From Escherichia coli (GTDB lineage: Bacteria > Pseudomonadota > Gammaproteobacteria > Enterobacterales > Enterobacteriaceae): DNA of 64,000 nt. The stretch lies in NCBI RefSeq assembly GCF_048403405.1, contig NZ_CP183129.1. One strand, 5' to 3'. The position numbers were made by a program, and so were the translations under genes. Every line of letters starts with the position of its first letter. Within the stretch, counting starts at the first letter, position 1. Below the pieces are notes generated by a model. The model was given only the letters and a program-made list of their open reading frames with translations. It did no database searches and had not been told where the DNA came from. This document shows, in pieces, positions 1 to 16,376 of the stretch.

Positions 1-3000
1 TTGCCCGTTCAGTGTCACCGTAATAGTGGTGCCCGCTGGCTGATTGCTGGTGCCGGAAATTTGCAGATCCGCGCCTTTTTCGGTGGCGTTAATTATGTCA
101 TCGGTAGCGATGGTGTTAATGCCAATGGTTGGCGCGGTAAGGTTAACGGTGACCGTGTGCGTTTCGCTGTCGCTATTACCTGCCGCATCGGTAACGGTCG
201 CCATCACGGTTTGCGGGCCGCTACCCAGCGCCGTGACATCCGCCGCCGGAACGCCGACGCTCCAGTTGCCGGAGGCATCCAGCGTCGTGGTGTAGGTTTT
301 ACTGTTTAGCGTGACGGTGACGACATCCCCCGCTTCTCCGCCAGTGCTGGAACCGGAAATCACCAGCGCCTGCCCGTGTTCGGCGGCGTTAATAATATCG
401 TCGCCCGCAATGGTGTTGATGGTAAGTACCGGAACGGTGAGATCCACCGCCAGATTATGCGTGGTGCTCGCCGGGTTGCCCGCTTTGTCATTGACCGTGG
501 CGGTCAGGGTGTGGCTGCCATCGGTCAATGCCTCAAGATCTGCCGCCGGAATATTAATACTCCAGCTACCGTCGGCCTGTACCGTTGCCTGATACGTCTG
601 CACGGTCGGGCTATTGAGCGTTATCGTAACAATCTGCCCTGCCTCGGCAGTGGTGCTGCCGCTCACCGTCACACCCGCATCGGCTTCGCTGGCGTTGACG
701 ATATTGTCGCTGGCAACGGTATTGATAATGATGGTCGGGGCACTGCTATCGACGCTGTAGTTATGCACCGCCGAGGCGCTATTGCCATTAATATTGCTGA
801 CGCTGGCCTGCGTGGAGGCGCTGCCATCGGTTAATAACGCTAAATCGGCAGCGGGAACGGTGGCACTCCAGCTACCATCGCTCGCCACGCTGGCAGTGTA
901 ATTTTTCCCGCCAAAGGTGACGGTGACCGTTTGCCCGGCTTCTACATTTGTGGTGGTGCCGGAAAGGGTTAAATCAGCGCCTTTTTCTGCGCCGTTAATC
1001 ACATCGTCCGTGGCGATAGTGTTGATGGTAATAGCCGCCGGAGTGAGATCCACCGTTACCGGATGCGTAATGCTTATCGGATTTCCGGCGCTACTTTCCC
1101 CGGACACGGCAATATTAATCGTCCCCGCAGGCCAGGCGCTAACCTGCGCCGCCGTGACGCCCACGCTCCAGCTACCATCGGCCTGCACCGCAGTGGTGTA
1201 TTCCACATTATTAATTGTGACGGTAAGCGGCGTGCCTTCAGCCAGCCCCGAGCTGCTGCCGCTGACCACCAGCGCCTGCCCGTGCTCGATGATATTGACC
1301 ACATCATCGCCTGCCACCGTATCGATCCGCAGACCGGGCAGATTGGCGTCGATGGTGATATCCCGCGTGCCGCTGCCGGTGTTGCCGTTTTGATTGGTGA
1401 CCGAGGCGCTCACCGTTAAATCGCCATTACCCAGCGCCTGAATATCTGCCGCCGGAACGCTCACGCTCCAGGTGAGATTGCTGCCCACCGTCGCCGTATA
1501 AGTATTACCGCCCAACGTAATAGTTACCGTGTCGCCATCTTCCGCTCCAGTAACCTGCCCGCTGATGGTTTGCGCGACGCCCGCTTCGGCGGCGTTAATA
1601 ATATCGTCGGTTGCCACCGGGTTAATGGTCACGCCGGGCAGCGCGCTGTCAACCAGCACGTTATGGCTGGCGGTGTTGCTGTTGCCGATACTGCTGGTTA
1701 CCGCCGCCGTTACCGTGTAGTTGGCCTGGCCCAGTGCGGTTACCGCCGATGCCGGAACGGTGACGCTCCAGTTGCCGGAGGCGTCGGTCGTGGTGGTGTA
1801 ATTTTGCCCGTTCAGCGTCACGGTGATGGCGGTATTAACAGGCTGATCGCTGGTGCCGGTAATCTGGACATCGGTTCCTTTTTCGCTGGCGTTAATCACA
1901 TCATCGCCCGCAATGCTGTTAATGCCGATAAGGGGCGCTGCGGTATTGACCGTGACGGTCAATGACTGGCTGCCGCTGTTTCCTGCGCGGTCGGTTACCG
2001 AGACGCTGACAGGATAACTGCCGTCCACCAGTCCGCTGACAACGGAAGCCGGAACACCCAGACTCCAGTTGCCGGAACCATCCACCACCGTGGTGTAATC
2101 GGAATTATTTAACGTAACGGTGACAATATCGCCCGCCTGCGCGCCAGTAACCGTGCCACTGATGATTTGCGCCTGGGTGTGTTCCGGCGTGTTGATGACG
2201 TTATCGGTCGCCACCGGATTAATGGTCACCACCGGAGGCGTGGCATCGACCAGCGCCACCCGTGAAACGCTGGTCGGGTTACCGGCGACATCGTTCACGC
2301 TGGCGGTGACCGTGGCGTTGCCGTCAGCCAGTGCGTCAACATTGGCGGCGGGAACGGTCACGCTCCAGGTGCCGTCGGACTGCACGATGCCCTGATAGGT
2401 TTGCCCATTCAACGTAACGGTCACCGTCTGCCCCGGCTGAGCGTCGGTGGTGCCGGTGATGGGCAAATCCTGCCCGCTTTCGGCGGCGTTAATGATGTTA
2501 TCAGCGGTCAGTGGATCGATGCTCAACGCCGGGGCCTGGCTGTCGACGGTAATGGTGCGGGAGGTGTTGCCGGTATTGCCGCTGAGATCCGTCACAGAAG
2601 CGGTAATCGCCACCGCGCCGTCAGGCAGATTTCCCATCGCGGCGGCAGGTACCGTCAGACTCCAGGAGCCATCAGCCTGCACGGTAGTGGTAAAACTCTG
2701 TCCAGCCAGGGTTACTGTGACGGTTTGTCCTGTCTCGGCCTGTTGAGTGCTACCGGTAAGGGTCAGTGGCGCACCTTTTTCTGCGCCACTGATAATGTCA
2801 TCGCCGGAGACGGTGTTAATGGTGATCAACGGAGAAACACCGACCAGCGTGATTGCTCGAGACGCCGCGCCAGTATTTCCTGCAGCATCTGTCACGGTGA
2901 CGAAAATCGTATTGGCTCCGCGATCCAGCGTGCGGGTTACCGCCGGGTCCAGCGCCACATTCCAGCTGCCATCTGCCAGCACGATGCCCGTCAGGACATG

Positions 3001-3740
3001 AGTGCCCAATTTCACCGTTACCGTATCGCCAGGAGAAGCACCGCTGACTTGTCCGGAGATGATCTGCGCGACGGCCTGCTCGGCATTATTAAGAATATCG
3101 TCGCCCGCCACGGTGTTAACGCTGACCACGGGTGCTGAGGTGTCTACCGTGAAATTCGCGCTGTGGCTGGTGGTGTTTCCTGCCCGATCGCTGACACTGG
3201 CATTGACAGCATAATTACCCTCCGCCAGTGCCTGGACTTCCGTGGCAGGCAGCGTCACTTGCCAGGTTCCGTCGCTACCGACGGTTGCTGTATGGCTTTT
3301 CCCGTTGACGGTCAGTGTTACGGTTTGCCCCGCTTCTGCATTCGACGTGCCGCTCAGTACCAGCGCGACGTTATGTTCCGCAGCACTGATGATGTTGTCC
3401 TGAGCGATGGTGTTGATGGCAAGCGTTGGCGGTTGGGTATCGACCGTTAGCAGCTGCGCGCCGGTGACCGTATTGCCTGTGGCGTCTTTCCCACTGACCA
3501 GCACCGCCTGATTCCCTTCGCCTAACGCCTGTGCATCGGCGGTCGGCACCTGCACGCTCCAGGCACCGTTAGCGCCTACGCTGGTGGTGTAGGTTTTGCC
3601 GTTTAGCGTAACGGTGAGTTCTGTTCCCTGCGCCAGATGGCTACTGGTGCCAGAAAGCGTAAACCCGGCGGCCTGTTCGCTGGCGTTAATAATGTTATCG
3701 CCTGCGGTGGTGGCAACCTGCACGCTGGCCTGACTATTGT
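1..3740 (-). repeat. Tandem array of ~300-bp coding repeats (Ig-like domains) inside the adhesin gene; repeats diverged (~40-60% aa identity by eye)
   Basis: Recurring ~100-aa motif in the hand translation; array start approximate. Confidence 0.7.
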
Positions 3741-4548
3741 CGATGGTTAACGTTATCGAACCGGCGTCAGTGATGGTACTGCCGACAATTTGCACCACTG
3801 ACCAGGTATGTTCACCTGCACTTTGCGTGGGTAACGAGACACTCCAGTGACCGTTGTTGTCTACCTGAGTACTGGCAATAGTATTGCCGTTACTGTCTTT
3901 AATCTGAATAGTCGCCCCCGCCTGCCCGCTGCCGCTAAAGGTTGGCGTGGTGTCATCGGTGATGTCATTGGTGGCGAGAATGCCGCGCTGATCGCCCTGA
4001 TTATCGGTAACTAAGAATGATGGTGTGGCGTTGCCAGGCTCAGCGGGTGGCGTAGGGTTATTAATCACTTCCGTTTTCGAGTCGCCATCACCACCGCTTG
4101 CCAGCAGTGCACCAAGCGCACCACCACCTACCGCCGCCCCCGCCAGCCAACCCCACGGGAAGGCGCTGGTCTGAGCAACGGTATCAAGAAATGGCGCAAT
4201 GCTTTCAATCGCGGTGGTCTGGGCAGTCAGTTCTACGGGGGCTAATCCACCCGCAGCAGTATCGGCAAAGGTGACGTGGGTGAGCTGTTGTCCATCGGCA
4301 AACACCAGTTCCGATTGTTCAGCGGTATTCGCCGCTTGCAGGAAATAACCGTTGCAACGGATCACCGTGCCGTCCTGCATATAGATCAGCAGGTCATTTC
4401 CTTCACGGACGTAACGCGAAACGGCAGAGGCCTGAGCATGAACCTGCACCACGGAAGGCTCATAAATAACAACCGTGACGTCGCCAGGATTAATCAGCGT
4501 TTGTTTGACGGATGTTTTACGCGAAATAACATCAATAATCAGGCTCAT
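1..4548 (-). CDS. Giant surface adhesin / type I secretion substrate, N-terminal ~1515 codons (3' end beyond window start); BapA-like N-terminal domain followed by tandem Ig-like domains
   Basis: Minus-strand frame open from ATG at 4546-4548 (AGGAAT RBS 6 nt upstream) to position 1 with no stop. Hand translation: MSLIIDVISRKTSVKQTLINPGDVTVVIYEP..., then 13 or more ~100-aa repeats (TINTIAGDDIINAAE..ISGTS..GQTVTVTLNG.TYTATV.ADGSWSV.VPAAD..AL.DG..TV.ASVTD.AGN). Plus-strand track ORFs here are antisense artefacts. Confidence 0.85.
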   Translation of the reverse strand, partial: MSLIIDVISRKTSVKQTLINPGDVTVVIYEPSVVQVHAQASAVSRYVREGNDLLIYMQDGTVIRCNGYFLQAANTAEQSELVFADGQQLTHVTFADTAAGGLAPVELTAQTTAIESIAPFLDTVAQTSAFPWGWLAGAAVGGGALGALLASGGDGDSKTEVINNPTPPAEPGNATPSFLVTDNQGDQRGILATNDITDDTTPTFSGSGQAGATIQIKDSNGNTIASTQVDNNGHWSVSLPTQSAGEHTWSVVQIVGSTITDAGSITLTIDNSQASVQVATTAGDNIINASEQAAGFTLSGTSSHLAQGTELTVTLNGKTYTTSVGANGAWSVQVPTADAQALGEGNQAVLVSGKDATGNTVTGAQLLTVDTQPPTLAINTIAQDNIISAAEHNVALVLSGTSNAEAGQTVTLTVNGKSHTATVGSDGTWQVTLPATEVQALAEGNYAVNASVSDRAGNTTSHSANFTVDTSAPVVSVNTVAGDDILNNAEQAVAQIISGQVSGASPGDTVTVKLGTHVLTGIVLADGSWNVALDPAVTRTLDRGANTIFVTVTDAAGNTGAASRAITLVGVSPLITINTVSGDDIISGAEKGAPLTLTGSTQQAETGQTVTVTLAGQSFTTTVQADGSWSLTVPAAAMGNLPDGAVAITASVTDLSGNTGNTSRTITVDSQAPALSIDPLTADNIINAAESGQDLPITGTTDAQPGQTVTVTLNGQTYQGIVQSDGTWSVTVPAANVDALADGNATVTASVNDVAGNPTSVSRVALVDATPPVVTINPVATDNVINTPEHTQAQIISGTVTGAQAGDIVTVTLNNSDYTTVVDGSGNWSLGVPASVVSGLVDGSYPVSVSVTDRAGNSGSQSLTVTVNTAAPLIGINSIAGDDVINASEKGTDVQITGTSDQPVNTAITVTLNGQNYTTTTDASGNWSVTVPASAVTALGQANYTVTAAVTSSIGNSNTASHNVLVDSALPGVTINPVATDDIINAAEAGVAQTISGQVTGAEDGDTVTITLGGNTYTATVGSNLTWSVSVPAADIQALGNGDLTVSASVTNQNGNTGSGTRDITIDANLPGLRIDTVAGDDVVNIIEHGQALVVSGSSSGLAEGTPLTVTINNVEYTTAVQADGSWSVGVTAAQVSAWPAGTINIAVSGESSAGNPISITHPVTVDLTPAAITINTIATDDVINGAEKGADLTLSGTTTNVEAGQTVTVTFGGKNYTASVASDGSWSATVPAADLALLTDGSASTQASVSNINGNSASAVHNYSVDSSAPTIIINTVASDNIVNASEADAGVTVSGSTTAEAGQIVTITLNSPTVQTYQATVQADGSWSINIPAADLEALTDGSHTLTATVNDKAGNPASTTHNLAVDLTVPVLTINTIAGDDIINAAEHGQALVISGSSTGGEAGDVVTVTLNSKTYTTTLDASGNWSVGVPAADVTALGSGPQTVMATVTDAAGNSDSETHTVTVNLTAPTIGINTIATDDIINATEKGADLQISGTSNQPAGTTITVTLNGQ

Positions 4549-8839: not shown

Positions 8840-9051
8840 ATGTCACAAACTATCGACCTGACCCTGGACGGCCTGTCCTGCGGTCACTGCGTTAAACGCG
8901 TGAAAGAAAGTCTCGAACAGCGCCCGGATGTTGAGCAGGCGGATGTGTCTGTCACTGAAGCGCACGTTACCGGGACTGCCAGTGCAGAACAGCTGATCGA
9001 AACCATCAAACAAGCGGGTTATGACGCATCTGTAAGCCACCCAAAGGCTAA
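8840..9051 (+). CDS. copA: CopA(Z) copper chaperone, 70 aa, produced by programmed -1 ribosomal frameshift within copA
   Basis: Slippery heptamer C-CCA-AAG at 9040-9046 (codons 68-69); the -1 frame reads CCC AAA GGC TAA, ending ...SHPKG. Confidence 0.75.
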
Positions 9052-11344
9052 ACCGCTGGCGGAGTCATCAATCCCGTCGGAAGCACTGACAGCGGTTTCT
9101 GAGGCGCTTCCGGCAGCGACCGCCGATGACGATGACAGCCAGCAGTTGCTGCTGAGCGGCATGAGCTGCGCCAGCTGTGTCACCCGCGTACAAAATGCGC
9201 TGCAAAGCGTACCGGGCGTCACTCAGGCACGGGTAAACCTGGCGGAGCGTACTGCGCTGGTGATGGGCAGTGCCTCCCCACAAGATTTAGTGCAGGCGGT
9301 GGAAAAAGCGGGCTACGGCGCGGAAGCGATTGAAGATGACGCTAAACGCCGCGAGCGCCAGCAAGAAACCGCCGTCGCTACGATGAAGCGCTTCCGCTGG
9401 CAGGCGATTGTCGCACTGGCGGTGGGTATCCCGGTGATGGTCTGGGGGATGATCGGCGATAACATGATGGTCACCGCCGACAACCGCAGCCTGTGGTTGG
9501 TTATCGGCCTGATAACCCTGGCGGTAATGGTTTTCGCCGGCGGGCATTTTTACCGCAGTGCATGGAAAAGCCTGCTGAACGGCGCGGCGACAATGGATAC
9601 GCTGGTGGCGCTGGGTACGGGCGTGGCGTGGCTCTATTCGATGAGCGTCAACCTGTGGCCGCAGTGGTTCCCGATGGAAGCGCGACATCTTTATTACGAA
9701 GCCAGCGCGATGATTATCGGTCTGATCAATCTCGGCCATATGCTGGAAGCGCGCGCGCGTCAGCGTTCTTCTAAGGCGCTGGAGAAATTACTCGATTTAA
9801 CCCCACCGACGGCGCGCCTGGTCACTGACGAAGGTGAAAAAAACGTGCCGCTGGCAGATGTTCAGCCAGGTATGTTACTGCGCCTGACGACCGGCGACCG
9901 TGTGCCGGTAGATGGTGAGATTACTCAAGGCGAAGCGTGGCTGGATGAAGCGATGCTGACGGGCGAACCTATCCCGCAGCAAAAAGGCGAAGGCGATAGC
10001 GTCCATGCCGGGACAGTGGTACAGGACGGCAGTGTGCTGTTTCGTGCCAGTGCGGTCGGCAGCCATACTACGCTGTCACGGATCATTCGCATGGTGCGAC
10101 AGGCCCAGAGCAGCAAGCCAGAAATCGGTCAACTGGCGGATAAAATCTCCGCCGTGTTTGTGCCGGTAGTGGTAGTCATTGCGCTGATCAGTGCGGCAAT
10201 CTGGTATTTCTTTGGTCCGGCACCGCAGATTGTCTATACCCTGGTGATTGCCACCACGGTGCTGATTATCGCCTGTCCGTGTGCGCTAGGACTGGCGACG
10301 CCGATGTCGATTATTTCGGGCGTCGGGCGGGCGGCTGAGTTTGGTGTGCTGGTGCGGGACGCCGACGCGCTGCAACGCGCCAGTACGCTCGACACCGTGG
10401 TGTTCGATAAAACCGGGACGCTGACCGAAGGGAAGCCGCAGGTTGTCGCAGTAAAAACATTTGCTGATGTTGATGAAGCGCAAGCATTGCGTCTGGCGGC
10501 GGCGCTGGAGCAAGGTTCCAGCCACCCGCTGGCACGGGCGATCCTCGATAAAGCAGGTGATATGCAGCTACCGCAGGTCAACGGTTTCCGCACATTGCGC
10601 GGGCTGGGTGTGAGCGGTGAAGCAGAAGGTCATGCGTTGTTGCTGGGTAATCAGGCGTTGTTAAATGAGCAACAGGTTGATACCAAAGCTATCGAAGCGG
10701 AGATTACTGCTCAGGCATCGCAAGGGGCAACGCCTGTGCTGCTGGCGGTTGACGGGAAAGCGGTAGCCCTGCTGGCTGTACGCGATCCGTTGCGTAGTGA
10801 TAGCGTGGCGGCGCTGCAACGCCTGCATAAAGCGGGATATCGTCTGGTGATGCTAACCGGGGATAACCCAACCACCGCCAATGCGATCGCCAAAGAAGCA
10901 GGGATTGATGAGGTGATAGCCGGGGTGCTACCGGACGGTAAAGCCGAAGCGATCAAACGTCTGCAAAGTGAAGGACGTCAGGTGGCAATGGTGGGCGACG
11001 GCATTAACGACGCGCCAGCGCTGGCTCAGGCGGATGTCGGTATTGCGATGGGTGGCGGCAGTGATGTTGCCATTGAAACCGCGGCGATTACCCTGATGCG
11101 CCATAGCCTGATGGGTGTTGCAGATGCGCTCGCGATTTCCCGCGCAACGCTGCGCAATATGAAGCAGAACCTGCTCGGCGCGTTTATCTACAACAGTATC
11201 GGTATTCCGGTCGCCGCCGGTATTTTGTGGCCGTTCACTGGAACACTGCTTAACCCGGTGGTTGCCGGAGCGGCAATGGCGCTCTCGTCGATTACCGTAG
11301 TGAGTAACGCTAACCGGTTGCTGCGGTTTAAACCGAAAGAGTGA
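8840..11344 (+). CDS. copA: Cu(I)-exporting P1B-type ATPase CopA (834 aa)
   Basis: Complete ORF; two N-terminal metal-binding motifs (GLSCGHC, GMSCASC), CPC and DKTGT motifs. Confidence 0.95.
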
Positions 11345-11435
11345 TTGGTATTTACTTAATGCGTTTGTGAGATCCAGTTCTTGTTGCGCTCCTTTTATGA
11401 GTCATGCCATATAAAGTGACTGGCGCAGGGAGCGC

Positions 11436-11467
11436 GCAGGGGGCGGCCAATCGCCGCCGCCCCCTGC
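11436..11467. repeat. Perfect 12-bp GC-rich hairpin (GCAGGGGGCGGC / GCCGCCCCCTGC, 8-nt loop) within a GC-rich non-coding segment
   Basis: Read directly; no U-tract on either side, so not a canonical terminator. Confidence 0.6.
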
Positions 11468-11772
11468 ACCCCCGGGCTCTGGCGAACAAAATCGCCGCTG
11501 CGCGGTACCCTCAGCTTATCCCTTGCGGCTACCGGGTCGGGCGCGAGGTAACATCCCTGTAAAACGCGCCCTCAGCCCACATCCATGTGGGCTGCCCCGG
11601 CCTTCAGGGAACGCCTCGGCGATTTTGACGCCACCAACACCGGTGCAGTCTTTCGTTTCAAAGCAAAAACAATTTTTCGATCATATTTAAGCTACCACTG
11701 AACAAGCCTCATAACTCCATTTGCGCCATCCCTCCCCGCGCGCTAGCATGATATTTCACAAAGGGAGGTCGT

Positions 11773-12567
11773 ATGGATCTGTTGTACCGGGTAAAAACGC
11801 TTTGGGCCGCGCTGCGCGGTAATCATTACACCTGGCCTGCTATCGATATCTCTCTTCCCGGCAATCGCCATTTTCATCTGATTGGCAGTATTCATATGGG
11901 CAGCCACGATATGGCTCCCCTGCCCACCCGTTTGCTCAAAAAGCTCAAAAACGCCGATGCGCTGATCGTCGAGGCGGATGTTTCCACCAGCGATACGCCT
12001 TTTGCTAATTTGCCTGCCTGCGAGGCGCTGGAAGAGCGCATTAGCGAGGAGCAACTCCAAAACCTGCAGCACATTAGCCAGGAGATGGGCATTTCTACCT
12101 CACTCTTTTCTACCCAACCGCTGTGGCAAATCGCGATGGTTCTTCAGGCGACGCAGGCACAAAAACTGGGGCTGCGGGCAGAATACGGTATCGATTACCA
12201 GCTATTGCAGGCGGCGAAGCAACAACATAAACCCGTGATTGAACTGGAAGGGGCTGAAAACCAGATTGCCATGTTGCTCCAGCTCCCTGACAACGGACTG
12301 GCGCTGCTGGACGATACGCTGACCCACTGGCACACCAATGCACGGTTGCTGCAACAAATGATGAGCTGGTGGCTGAATGCGCCGCCGCAAAATAATGAAA
12401 TAACGCTGCCTAATACGTTCAGTCAGTCGCTGTATGATGTGCTGATGCATCAGCGAAATCTCGCCTGGCGGGACAAATTATGCGCCATGCCGCCGGGGCG
12501 CTATGTGGTCGCAGTCGGTGCACTACACCTGTATGGAGAAGGGAATTTGCCGCAGATGTTGCGCTAA
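11773..12567 (+). CDS. ybaP: TraB-family protein YbaP (264 aa)
   Basis: Complete ORF with AGGGAGG RBS; sequence recognisable. Confidence 0.9.
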   Translation: MDLLYRVKTLWAALRGNHYTWPAIDISLPGNRHFHLIGSIHMGSHDMAPLPTRLLKKLKNADALIVEADVSTSDTPFANLPACEALEERISEEQLQNLQHISQEMGISTSLFSTQPLWQIAMVLQATQAQKLGLRAEYGIDYQLLQAAKQQHKPVIELEGAENQIAMLLQLPDNGLALLDDTLTHWHTNARLLQQMMSWWLNAPPQNNEITLPNTFSQSLYDVLMHQRNLAWRDKLCAMPPGRYVVAVGALHLYGEGNLPQMLR

Positions 12568-15155: not shown

Positions 15156-16376
15156 ATGGCAATGAGTGAACAAACCCAGCCTGTGGCGGGCGCGGCTGCG
15201 TCAACGACCAAGGCCCGAACATCGTTTGGTATTTTAGGTGCTATCAGCCTCTCACATCTGCTGAACGACATGATCCAATCGCTGATTCTGGCGATTTATC
15301 CGCTGCTTCAGTCAGAATTTTCTCTGACATTTATGCAGATTGGCATGATAACCCTCACCTTCCAGCTCGCCTCTTCGCTACTGCAACCAGTGGTCGGCTA
15401 CTGGACCGATAAATATCCGATGCCGTGGTCGTTGCCAATTGGCATGTGCTTTACCTTAAGTGGTCTGGTGCTGCTGGCGCTGGCGGGCAGTTTTGGCGCA
15501 GTTCTGCTGGCGGCGGCGCTGGTCGGTACCGGTTCATCGGTCTTTCATCCGGAATCTTCTCGCGTGGCCCGTATGGCGTCCGGCGGGCGGCATGGCCTGG
15601 CACAATCTATCTTTCAGGTCGGCGGCAACTTTGGCAGCTCCCTGGGCCCCTTGCTGGCGGCGGTGATTATCGCGCCTTATGGCAAAGGCAACGTTGCCTG
15701 GTTTGTGCTTGCGGCACTGCTGGCGATCGTGGTGCTGGCGCAAATCAGCCGCTGGTACTCGGCACAGCACCGAATGAATAAAGGAAAACCCAAAGCGACG
15801 ATTATCAATCCACTGCCGCGCAACAAAGTGGTACTGGCGGTCAGCATTCTGTTAATCCTCATTTTCTCGAAATATTTCTATATGGCGAGCATCAGCAGCT
15901 ATTACACCTTTTATCTGATGCAAAAATTCGGATTATCTATCCAGAATGCCCAGCTTCATCTGTTTGCCTTCCTGTTTGCCGTTGCGGCAGGTACGGTGAT
16001 CGGCGGGCCTGTAGGGGATAAAATTGGACGGAAATATGTGATTTGGGGCTCTATCCTCGGCGTTGCGCCGTTTACGCTGATTTTACCCTACGCCAGCCTG
16101 CACTGGACGGGGGTTTTAACGGTGATTATTGGATTTATCCTCGCTTCGGCATTCTCTGCCATTCTGGTCTACGCTCAGGAGCTACTTCCGGGACGTATCG
16201 GTATGGTTTCTGGACTCTTTTTCGGTTTTGCTTTTGGCATGGGAGGTCTGGGAGCAGCAGTTCTGGGGCTTATCGCCGATCACACCAGCATCGAGTTAGT
16301 CTATAAAATCTGTGCTTTCCTGCCACTATTGGGGATGTTGACCATATTCCTGCCTGATAACCGGCATAAAGACTGA
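15156..16376 (+). CDS. fsr: Fosmidomycin resistance MFS transporter (406 aa)
   Basis: Complete ORF; 12-TM MFS-like sequence recognisable. Confidence 0.9.
   Translation: MAMSEQTQPVAGAAASTTKARTSFGILGAISLSHLLNDMIQSLILAIYPLLQSEFSLTFMQIGMITLTFQLASSLLQPVVGYWTDKYPMPWSLPIGMCFTLSGLVLLALAGSFGAVLLAAALVGTGSSVFHPESSRVARMASGGRHGLAQSIFQVGGNFGSSLGPLLAAVIIAPYGKGNVAWFVLAALLAIVVLAQISRWYSAQHRMNKGKPKATIINPLPRNKVVLAVSILLILIFSKYFYMASISSYYTFYLMQKFGLSIQNAQLHLFAFLFAVAAGTVIGGPVGDKIGRKYVIWGSILGVAPFTLILPYASLHWTGVLTVIIGFILASAFSAILVYAQELLPGRIGMVSGLFFGFAFGMGGLGAAVLGLIADHTSIELVYKICAFLPLLGMLTIFLPDNRHKD

Follow-up and report, generated by a model that had tools for sequence, protein, structure and literature searches.

The closest described relatives of the sequence analysed here are the TRIP1 intergenic repeats, a family that is traced to Rudd (1999) in Li et al. 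2024 (Genes 15:236, PMC10888264). Li et al. distinguished five TRIP1 types in E. coli, one of which, TRIP1e, is 265 bp long and 94% identical to TRIP1a, is located 38 bp past the stop of copA and 124 bp ahead of the start of ybaP and was found in 232 of 6725 genomes (PMC10888264). The same work reports 156 rearrangements mediated by TRIP1, among them TRIP1a/1e and TRIP1e/1c junctions. Pham et al. (NAR 2023, PMC10287960; NAR 2024, PMC11194060) described TRIP1 as Replication Risk Sequence (RRS), on which further literature is available (Kusi-Appauh et al. 2026, bioRxiv). RRS-lysO and RRS-dusC, which correspond to TRIP1a and TRIP1c, are 222-bp repeats that lie ~650 kb on each side of dif and flank Ter (PMC10287960, PMC11194060). 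With the G4 strand as lagging-strand template, polymerases are blocked and gaps of up to 2 kb arise that are coated with RecA and SSB; both proteins pile up on ~2 kb of the lagging-strand template adjoining each RRS (PMC10287960, PMC11194060). Insertion of an RRS at three new loci with the G4 strand on the lagging template gave a new RecA/SSB peak at each of them and the peak was absent with inverted copies (PMC10287960, PMC11194060); in RRS-lysO, the G4 sits on the lagging-strand template (PMC11194060). In single-molecule assays, a gap was formed in vitro at almost every replisome encounter in the native orientation. The authors proposed that the gaps serve as topological relief valves and reported additional RRS copies in some species (PMC10287960, PMC11194060). 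In K-12, a clean deletion of both RRS-lysO and RRS-dusC is not possible.

The published evidence on RRS is at the DNA level, whereas TwoAYGGAY (RF01731), the second described family to which the locus can be compared, is an RNA motif. TwoAYGGAY reportedly goes back to Weinberg et al. in 2010. It was proposed to be a CsrA-binding sRNA by Gardner and Eldai (2015), a proposal that was untested when made. Neither Rfam nor CsrA is mentioned in the TRIP1 paper (PMC10888264) or in the 2024 RRS paper (PMC11194060).

The DNA analysed here is a window of 64 kb in which copA (8840..11344, plus strand, 834 codons, stop TGA) is followed by ybaP (11773..12567, plus strand, 264 codons, start ATG), encoding a protein of the TraB/GumN family. 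With copA ending at 11344 and ybaP starting at 11773, the interval amounts to 428 bp, as a sequence-only reading of the same DNA had stated. It is made up of a left spacer of 34 nt (11345..11378), a repeat of 271 bp (11379..11649) and a right spacer of 123 nt (11650..11772). The repeat has a G+C content of 64.2%, compared to 52.3% for the whole window, which bears out the GC-rich segment noticed before. The perfect 12-bp hairpin (GCAGGGGGCGGC/GCCGCCCCCTGC, 11436-11467, loop of 8 nt) and the second palindrome (GCCCACATCCATGTGGGC, 11575-11592) were found exactly where they had been placed. For each strand, the predicted fold was much more stable than those of its shuffled versions (z of about -5.9; none of 200 shuffles was equally good), and apart from the statement on open reading frames, which is taken up below, the hairpin-rich and GC-rich segment is real and far beyond chance.

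The repeat belongs to the RRS family as a full-length copy; its G4 strand, which also folds better, is the minus strand. Identity to K-12 TRIP1a (aqpZ-lysO) is 94.1% over 271 bp, and to K-12 TRIP1c (dusC-yohP) 92.6%. TRIP1e is recognised by a length of ~265-273 bp, ~89-94% identity to TRIP1a, 62-65% G+C and its spacing to copA and ybaP, and the repeat falls within all of these ranges, with distances of 34 and 123 nt by the boundaries used here. Locus, spacing, length class, G+C content and 94% identity to TRIP1a are those of the TRIP1e of Li et al., and nothing material differs. The copA-ybaP repeat is therefore the published, already known TRIP1e and belongs to the RRS family; the earlier suggestion of an uncharacterised repeat or structured RNA holds as far as the repeat is concerned, but uncharacterised it is not. 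With REP/BIME elements TRIP1 has in common that it is a short, structured, GC-rich intergenic repeat after convergent or co-directional genes, but it is longer, of low copy number and without sequence relation to them, and in the K-12 allele three REP-like copies take its place. An identity as REP/BIME was rejected because the REP consensus GCC[G/T]GATGCG[A/G]CG is absent from the interval. ERIC was also considered as identity of the repeat and rejected.

In K-12 (TG1), the copA-ybaP interval is 794 bp long and contains, besides the three REP-like copies, ybaQ, a gene whose presence and size of 113 codons agree with the sequence-only reading. The gene runs opposite to copA and ybaP and is annotated as HigA-family antitoxin. 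A HigA-family HTH ORF between copA and ybaP, by which a HigBA/YbaQ cassette is recognised, is present in K-12, ATCC 11775 and UTAK-12 but not in the window. TBLASTN with K-12 YbaQ gave no significant match in the interval or the window, and with this protein and the RelE/ParE (HigB-like) toxin of ATCC 11775 as queries the best E-values in the interval and the 64-kb window were 0.2-0.6. Neither a K-12 interval identical to that of the window nor a YbaQ match, both named beforehand as findings against an absence of ybaQ, was obtained. Compared to the ybaQ-type alleles, divergence starts inside the final codons of copA (AAA GAG TGA in the window, AAG GAA TAA in K-12). The left spacer is allele-specific and without similarity to the K-12 interval, and on the right side homology with K-12 starts at ~11701; homology to other alleles upstream of ybaP is limited to the last 54-72 nt before the start codon, depending on the allele compared. 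Since the divergence spans the distance from the last codons of copA to 54-72 bp before ybaP, the interval is an alternative whole-spacer allele and not a decayed gene, in which the repeat replaces the ybaQ(higA)/higB cassette. Of the two events proposed earlier, replacement or decay, the first is what was found; in-place decay of ybaQ was rejected, as TBLASTN found no remnant in the interval or the whole window.

Of 5426 complete E. coli genomes, 346-347 (~6%) had the TRIP1e allele, and the full 428-bp interval was present in 346. Among the carriers are strains Ecol_316 (NZ_CP018957.1) and C4 (NZ_CP010121.1). This amounts to 6.4% of complete RefSeq genomes, compared to 3% of the 6725 mostly draft genomes of Li et al. 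The majority of the other complete genomes had ybaQ (higA) at the site, with or without the RelE/ParE toxin. Four types of allele were distinguished, TRIP1e, ybaQ alone, a higB-like toxin together with ybaQ, and a short deletion allele. ATCC 11775 has ybaQ together with a RelE/ParE-family toxin, and in another strain ybaQ was present and the REP array missing. The fourth allele was seen in the strain "capsule spontaneous mutant 21a" (L090, 746-916), a laboratory isolate according to its record, in which the interval is 171 bp long and ybaQ is reduced to its last 21 nt. A single locus that exchanges a toxin-antitoxin cassette for an RRS is a clean polymorphism for population studies; ybaQ/higBA as alternative occupant of the site goes unmentioned in Li et al. 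(PMC10888264), and so does the Rfam match described below.

The number of copies per genome, which the sequence-only reading had suggested to count, was determined: of the 5426 complete E. coli genomes, 5425 contain the repeat, with a median of 3 locations per genome. Copies elsewhere were located between aqpZ and lysO, between dusC and yohP, between alx and sstT (E. whittamii) and, in Pseudocitrobacter and Kluyvera, between mdlB and glnK, the Kluyvera position being judged from shared right flanks. A repeat search found no second copy inside the 64-kb window. A scan of species-representative genomes also revealed an incomplete TRIP1 copy in the yegH-asmA interval, covering query positions 63-247 at ~86% identity, in four Escherichia assemblies (L017, 8804-8988; L063, 8477-8611; L074, 376-560; L083, 898-1082); this locus is outside the five TRIP1 loci of Li et al. 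2024 (PMC10888264). The assemblies are those of E. whittamii, Escherichia sp. E1V33, Escherichia sp. MOD1-EC7003 and a genome that bears the label E. coli SCPM-O-B-8794. A MAG contig of 2.8 kb (L012; 1-116, 422-690) carried copA, a 34-nt spacer identical to the left spacer of the window and a TRIP1e copy of 98.5% identity; its right flank is unlike the window and resembles the dusC side, and the contig terminates in a second, inverted partial copy. It is either a TRIP1e/1c recombinant of the type described by Li et al. or an assembly chimera. The scan of viral contigs gave just two matches, one of which (IMG/VR contig L088, 767-953) comprises aqpZ followed by a TRIP1 copy that an IS4-like transposase gene truncates at position 84. 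The DNA of this "viral" contig probably stems from the host flank and not from a phage, and a phage link of the repeat was rejected on these grounds.

The one claim of the sequence-only reading that proved wrong was that ATG-initiated ORFs of at least 20 codons are absent from the interval. Three were identified, encoding 52 aa (11404-11562, plus strand), 38 aa (11585-11701, plus strand) and 20 aa (11687-11749, minus strand). They are not credible as genes because the repeat copies compared differ by indels of 1-2 nt, which would shift any reading frame, and because RefSeq annotates nothing over the interval in the 30 listed genomes with 100% identity across it. That the interval encodes a small protein, from the 52- or the 38-codon ORF, has practically no chance of being correct: both ORFs are present in the window and other repeat copies contain similar ones, but their lengths and ends vary from copy to copy along with the frame, and both lie entirely inside GC-rich paired helices. 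With frame-shifting indels and no annotation under the match, the protein-coding reading was rejected. At the 3' end of the minus strand (window 11379-11400) and at the homologous ends elsewhere a conserved AAAGGAGCGCAAC was seen; several copies continue with ATG(ATG) and with short ORFs that are not conserved, such as MMNQHITTS* at K-12 TRIP1a. A leader of a riboswitch or of a type I toxin, to which the Shine-Dalgarno-like AAGGAG and the ATG of some copies could point, was rejected; the downstream peptides are not conserved and in the consensus fold described next the GGAG pairs with GCGCUCC (helix 13).

For the analysis of the fold, 18 copies from Escherichia, Kluyvera, Pseudocitrobacter and one other Enterobacteriaceae genome were aligned and a consensus fold of the minus strand was derived. 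It comprises 86 pairs, with 97.9% of the cells paired. Compensatory changes were found in 7 pairs, a number reached in 3 of 500 shuffles, and in 22 cells, which none of 500 shuffles reached; when the partners were slid by 1-3 columns, pairing dropped to 41-45%. The covariation across these 18 copies indicates that TRIP1 is under selection as a single-strand structure. In all 18 copies the G4 strand folded better than its complement (mean of -146.5 compared to -129.5 kcal/mol), and the consensus fold has 130 G-U cells but only 6 A-C cells. The better predicted fold of the G4 strand agrees, as weak evidence, with the published stronger block by this strand; it may merely reflect G-richness, as the z-scores against own shuffles are equal on both strands. 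A conservation peak at the palindrome 11575-11592 (hairpin 1 below) in the alignment is an ascertainment artefact, since most copies were gathered by exact search for its 18-mer, and was not used as evidence.

The published RRS G-quadruplex-forming 20-mer GGGGGTGCAGGGGGCGGCGG (PMC11194060) occurs once in the window, as an exact copy on the minus strand (11454..11473), and the 5' arm of the 12-bp hairpin on the minus strand lies within it. In the TRIP1c and TRIP1d copies two base pairs of this hairpin carry compensatory changes from C-G to A-T. As the compensatory changes keep a hairpin whose arm overlaps the G4 tract, the block could be caused by the hairpin and not by a quadruplex. A term search of the 2024 RRS paper (PMC11194060) for cation dependence, circular dichroism or a test of G4 mutants gave no result.

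Could the repeat be a functionless one, non-autonomous and mobile or spread by recombination, that replaced the toxin-antitoxin cassette by chance and acts only as a substrate for recombination? We regard this as very improbable. The polymorphism of the site, with TRIP1e, ybaQ alone, toxin plus ybaQ and a short deletion, would fit such a relic, as would the 156 published rearrangements with their TRIP1a/1e and TRIP1e/1c junctions (PMC10888264) and the multi-copy nature of related elements, which occupy at least 11 loci in Edaphovirga cremea and are present in several copies in Psychromonas. Against it, the alignment ends, read by eye, show neither terminal inverted repeats nor target-site duplications, linkage to a transposase is absent and just five or six fixed sites are occupied across thousands of genomes (PMC10888264). 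Further, copies of Escherichia and of Kluyvera/Pseudocitrobacter are 87-90% identical at different loci and carry compensatory changes, which argues for selection on the sequence, and ectopic RRS were active at every locus tested (PMC10287960, PMC11194060).

We return to RRS, with whose experimentally studied members TRIP1e shares homologous sequence (94% to RRS-lysO, 93% to RRS-dusC), predicted folds and the G4 20-mer without a mismatch. It differs from both in being a third copy that lies off the dif-symmetric pair and is present in a minority of strains. For the orientation relative to the fork we used synteny: in K-12 (TG1) copA and aqpZ share a strand, and TRIP1a is oriented to aqpZ as TRIP1e is to copA. 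The two loci presumably lie ~0.4 Mb apart on the same replichore (K-12 map). The plus strand of the 64-kb window has a GC skew of -0.023, which is weak but as expected if the minus strand serves as lagging-strand template. Synteny and this weak skew together suggest that the G4 (minus) strand of TRIP1e is most likely the lagging-strand template, so that its orientation to the fork would match that of RRS-lysO. The copA locus we take to be ~1.1 Mb from dif on the K-12 map. At this distance, and not at ~650 kb, TRIP1e would be unable to act as a boundary flanking Ter and would count among the additional RRS copies that Pham et al. noted in some species.

Identity and allele status of TRIP1e are established here, and the mechanism is borrowed from the experiments on RRS-lysO and RRS-dusC. 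By this analogy, we consider it quite probable that TRIP1e is a natural extra full-length TRIP1/RRS copy at the ybaQ site that acts as a trigger of lagging-strand gaps. When the fork unwinds TRIP1e, the G-rich minus strand would fold on the transiently single-stranded lagging-strand template, with the G4 tract GGGGGTGCAGGGGGCGGCGG embedded among GC-rich hairpins. The fold would block the lagging-strand polymerase and leave a post-replication gap, as much as ~2 kb long, to which SSB and RecA bind. With the G4 strand as the presumed lagging template, the gap would extend from ~11473 towards ybaP and the genes past it. A DNA element can do without an ORF or a promoter, in line with the lack of both at TRIP1e; a promoter and terminator scan of 11200-11900 found zero promoters and one terminator-like site, which is within copA. 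Carriers of TRIP1e are natural strains with at least three RRS, the extra copy being apparently in the active orientation, and could reveal the effect of an additional, off-position gap trigger on replication and chromosome topology without engineering.

TRIP1a and TRIP1c were observed in either orientation between unchanged native flanking genes. TRIP1a is flipped in the aqpZ-lysO interval of strain E69 (L030, 3887-4157), where the immediate spacers differ as well and the aqpZ terminator hairpin of K-12 is missing; TRIP1c is flipped in the SCPM strain (L018, 1549-1820) and in K-12 (L093, ~15611-15880) compared to U12A (L002, 2501-2771). Such in-place flips are unexplained by simple recombination between two copies. 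Natural inversions of this kind mean that orientation is not strictly constrained, and a rule that the plus strand of the repeat is co-directional with the upstream gene was dropped, being broken by the inverted K-12 TRIP1c, the E69 TRIP1a and the SCPM TRIP1c. The GC skew of flanks of up to 15 kb was evaluated as a test of whether the GGA strand is the lagging template at loci of Escherichia, Edaphovirga, Shewanella, Thiotrichaceae and Lachnospiraceae; even the Escherichia loci, which served as control, were divided 6 to 8, and the test is therefore uninformative.

The repeat also matches the Rfam family TwoAYGGAY. On the minus strand, 11489..11628 aligns to the model from end to end, with its enclosing stem and two neighbouring hairpins, at 31.5 bits (E 0.003 in a search of 321 nt), which is below the gathering score of 43 bits. 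Hairpin 1 (GCCCAC-AUGGAU-GUGGGC, 11575..11592, minus strand) has the loop AUGGAU, and hairpin 2 (GGGCGCG...ACAGGGAUGU...CGCGCCC, 11539..11571, minus strand) the variant AGGGAU; the P1 stem is present and covaries. AGGGAY loops also occur among the Psychromonas seed members of TwoAYGGAY, which are multi-copy. The Kluyvera copy of the TRIP1 repeat reached 54.2 bits, past the gathering score, and a second, inverted core beside the Pseudocitrobacter copy 49.2 bits; K-12 TRIP1a and a TRIP1c copy gave no match at E up to 0.1 in a larger search. The element shares with TwoAYGGAY a pair of neighbouring hairpins, with A(Y/G)GGAY as loops, that the G-rich strand encloses in a long stem, but differs by its lower score, by AGGGAU instead of AYGGAY in loop 2 and by the additional modules of TRIP1, the G4/12-bp hairpin and the 3' helix, which are missing from the model.

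A scan of 100,044 species-representative genomes with the 18-mer of hairpin 1 returned three kinds of place. The first are TRIP1 copies, the second elements of Lachnospiraceae that pass the TwoAYGGAY threshold with 72-79 bits and have ~26 identical nt, hairpin 1 with its flanks, in common with TRIP1. The third are repeats of Edaphovirga cremea (at least 11 loci), Shewanella and a Thiotrichaceae MAG. TRIP1 and TwoAYGGAY have a core of two GGA-loop hairpins and the closing stem in common, along with the ~26 nt identical to Lachnospiraceae, which argues for a relationship, and the core of TRIP1 is likely homologous to that of TwoAYGGAY. The above-threshold Kluyvera copy and the identical hairpin across phyla support this tie.

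One reading of the match is that a minus-strand transcript of the repeat is an RNA of the TwoAYGGAY class whose GGA loops bind CsrA, as a sponge or a local regulator. This would be compatible with a role of the DNA, but we judge it improbable. The match of 11628..11489 to the whole model and the scores of the Kluyvera copy and the second Pseudocitrobacter core speak for it, as do the covarying helices. The CsrA SELEX consensus is RUACARGGAUGU, and the loops ACAUGGAUGU and UACAGGGAUGU as well as a third, AAGGGAU, resemble it. The proposal of Gardner and Eldai (2015) points in the same direction, but the idea was untested for TwoAYGGAY itself at the time. Moreover, the window copy is below the gathering threshold, K-12 TRIP1a and TRIP1c are without a match at E up to 0.1, no promoter-like site or terminator was found for the minus strand, and covariation fits a folded single strand of DNA or RNA equally. 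In E. coli CsrA CLIP-seq, the per-gene table, which is limited to genes, reads "No" throughout for dusC and ybjE; with the K-12 TRIP1 neighbours negative in this table, the CsrA idea is unsupported in E. coli.

The relation can also be read from the side of the DNA, such that TwoAYGGAY members of Gammaproteobacteria and Clostridia would adopt their fold when the DNA is single-stranded and would program gaps during replication. If RRS/TRIP1 is a relative of TwoAYGGAY, many TwoAYGGAY "RNAs" would really be gap elements at the DNA level, or RRS would double as a CsrA-titrating transcript, and, as a corollary, the structure selected at the "G4" would be the 12-bp hairpin and not a quadruplex. We put this forward tentatively and regard it as rather unlikely as a whole. 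Still preferred for TRIP1e itself is a probable function as a gap trigger. The sub-threshold match ties a recently characterised DNA element to a widespread orphan "RNA" motif and provides a testable hypothesis for both.

Further observations were made on these relatives and on the window. The repeats with an exact GCCCACATCCATGTGGGC in Edaphovirga cremea (L040-L050), Shewanella (L007, L055, L077) and the Thiotrichaceae MAG (L035-L037) have a second GGA-loop hairpin, and none of them reaches the TwoAYGGAY gathering score; in the Edaphovirga repeats the GC hairpin module is laid out as in TRIP1. In Pseudocitrobacter (mdlB-glnK; L013, 1868-2135 and 2218-2281) and Kluyvera (L039, 9505-9764 and 9360-9423), a full TRIP1 copy is followed ~80 bp on by an inverted double-hairpin core, and the inverted cores alone score 49 and 37 bits against TwoAYGGAY. 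Positions 1-4000 of the window contain arrays of direct repeats with a unit of ~300 nt, in four families of 60-76% identity; they look like part of a large coding region, repetitive and adhesin-like, extending past the start of the window.
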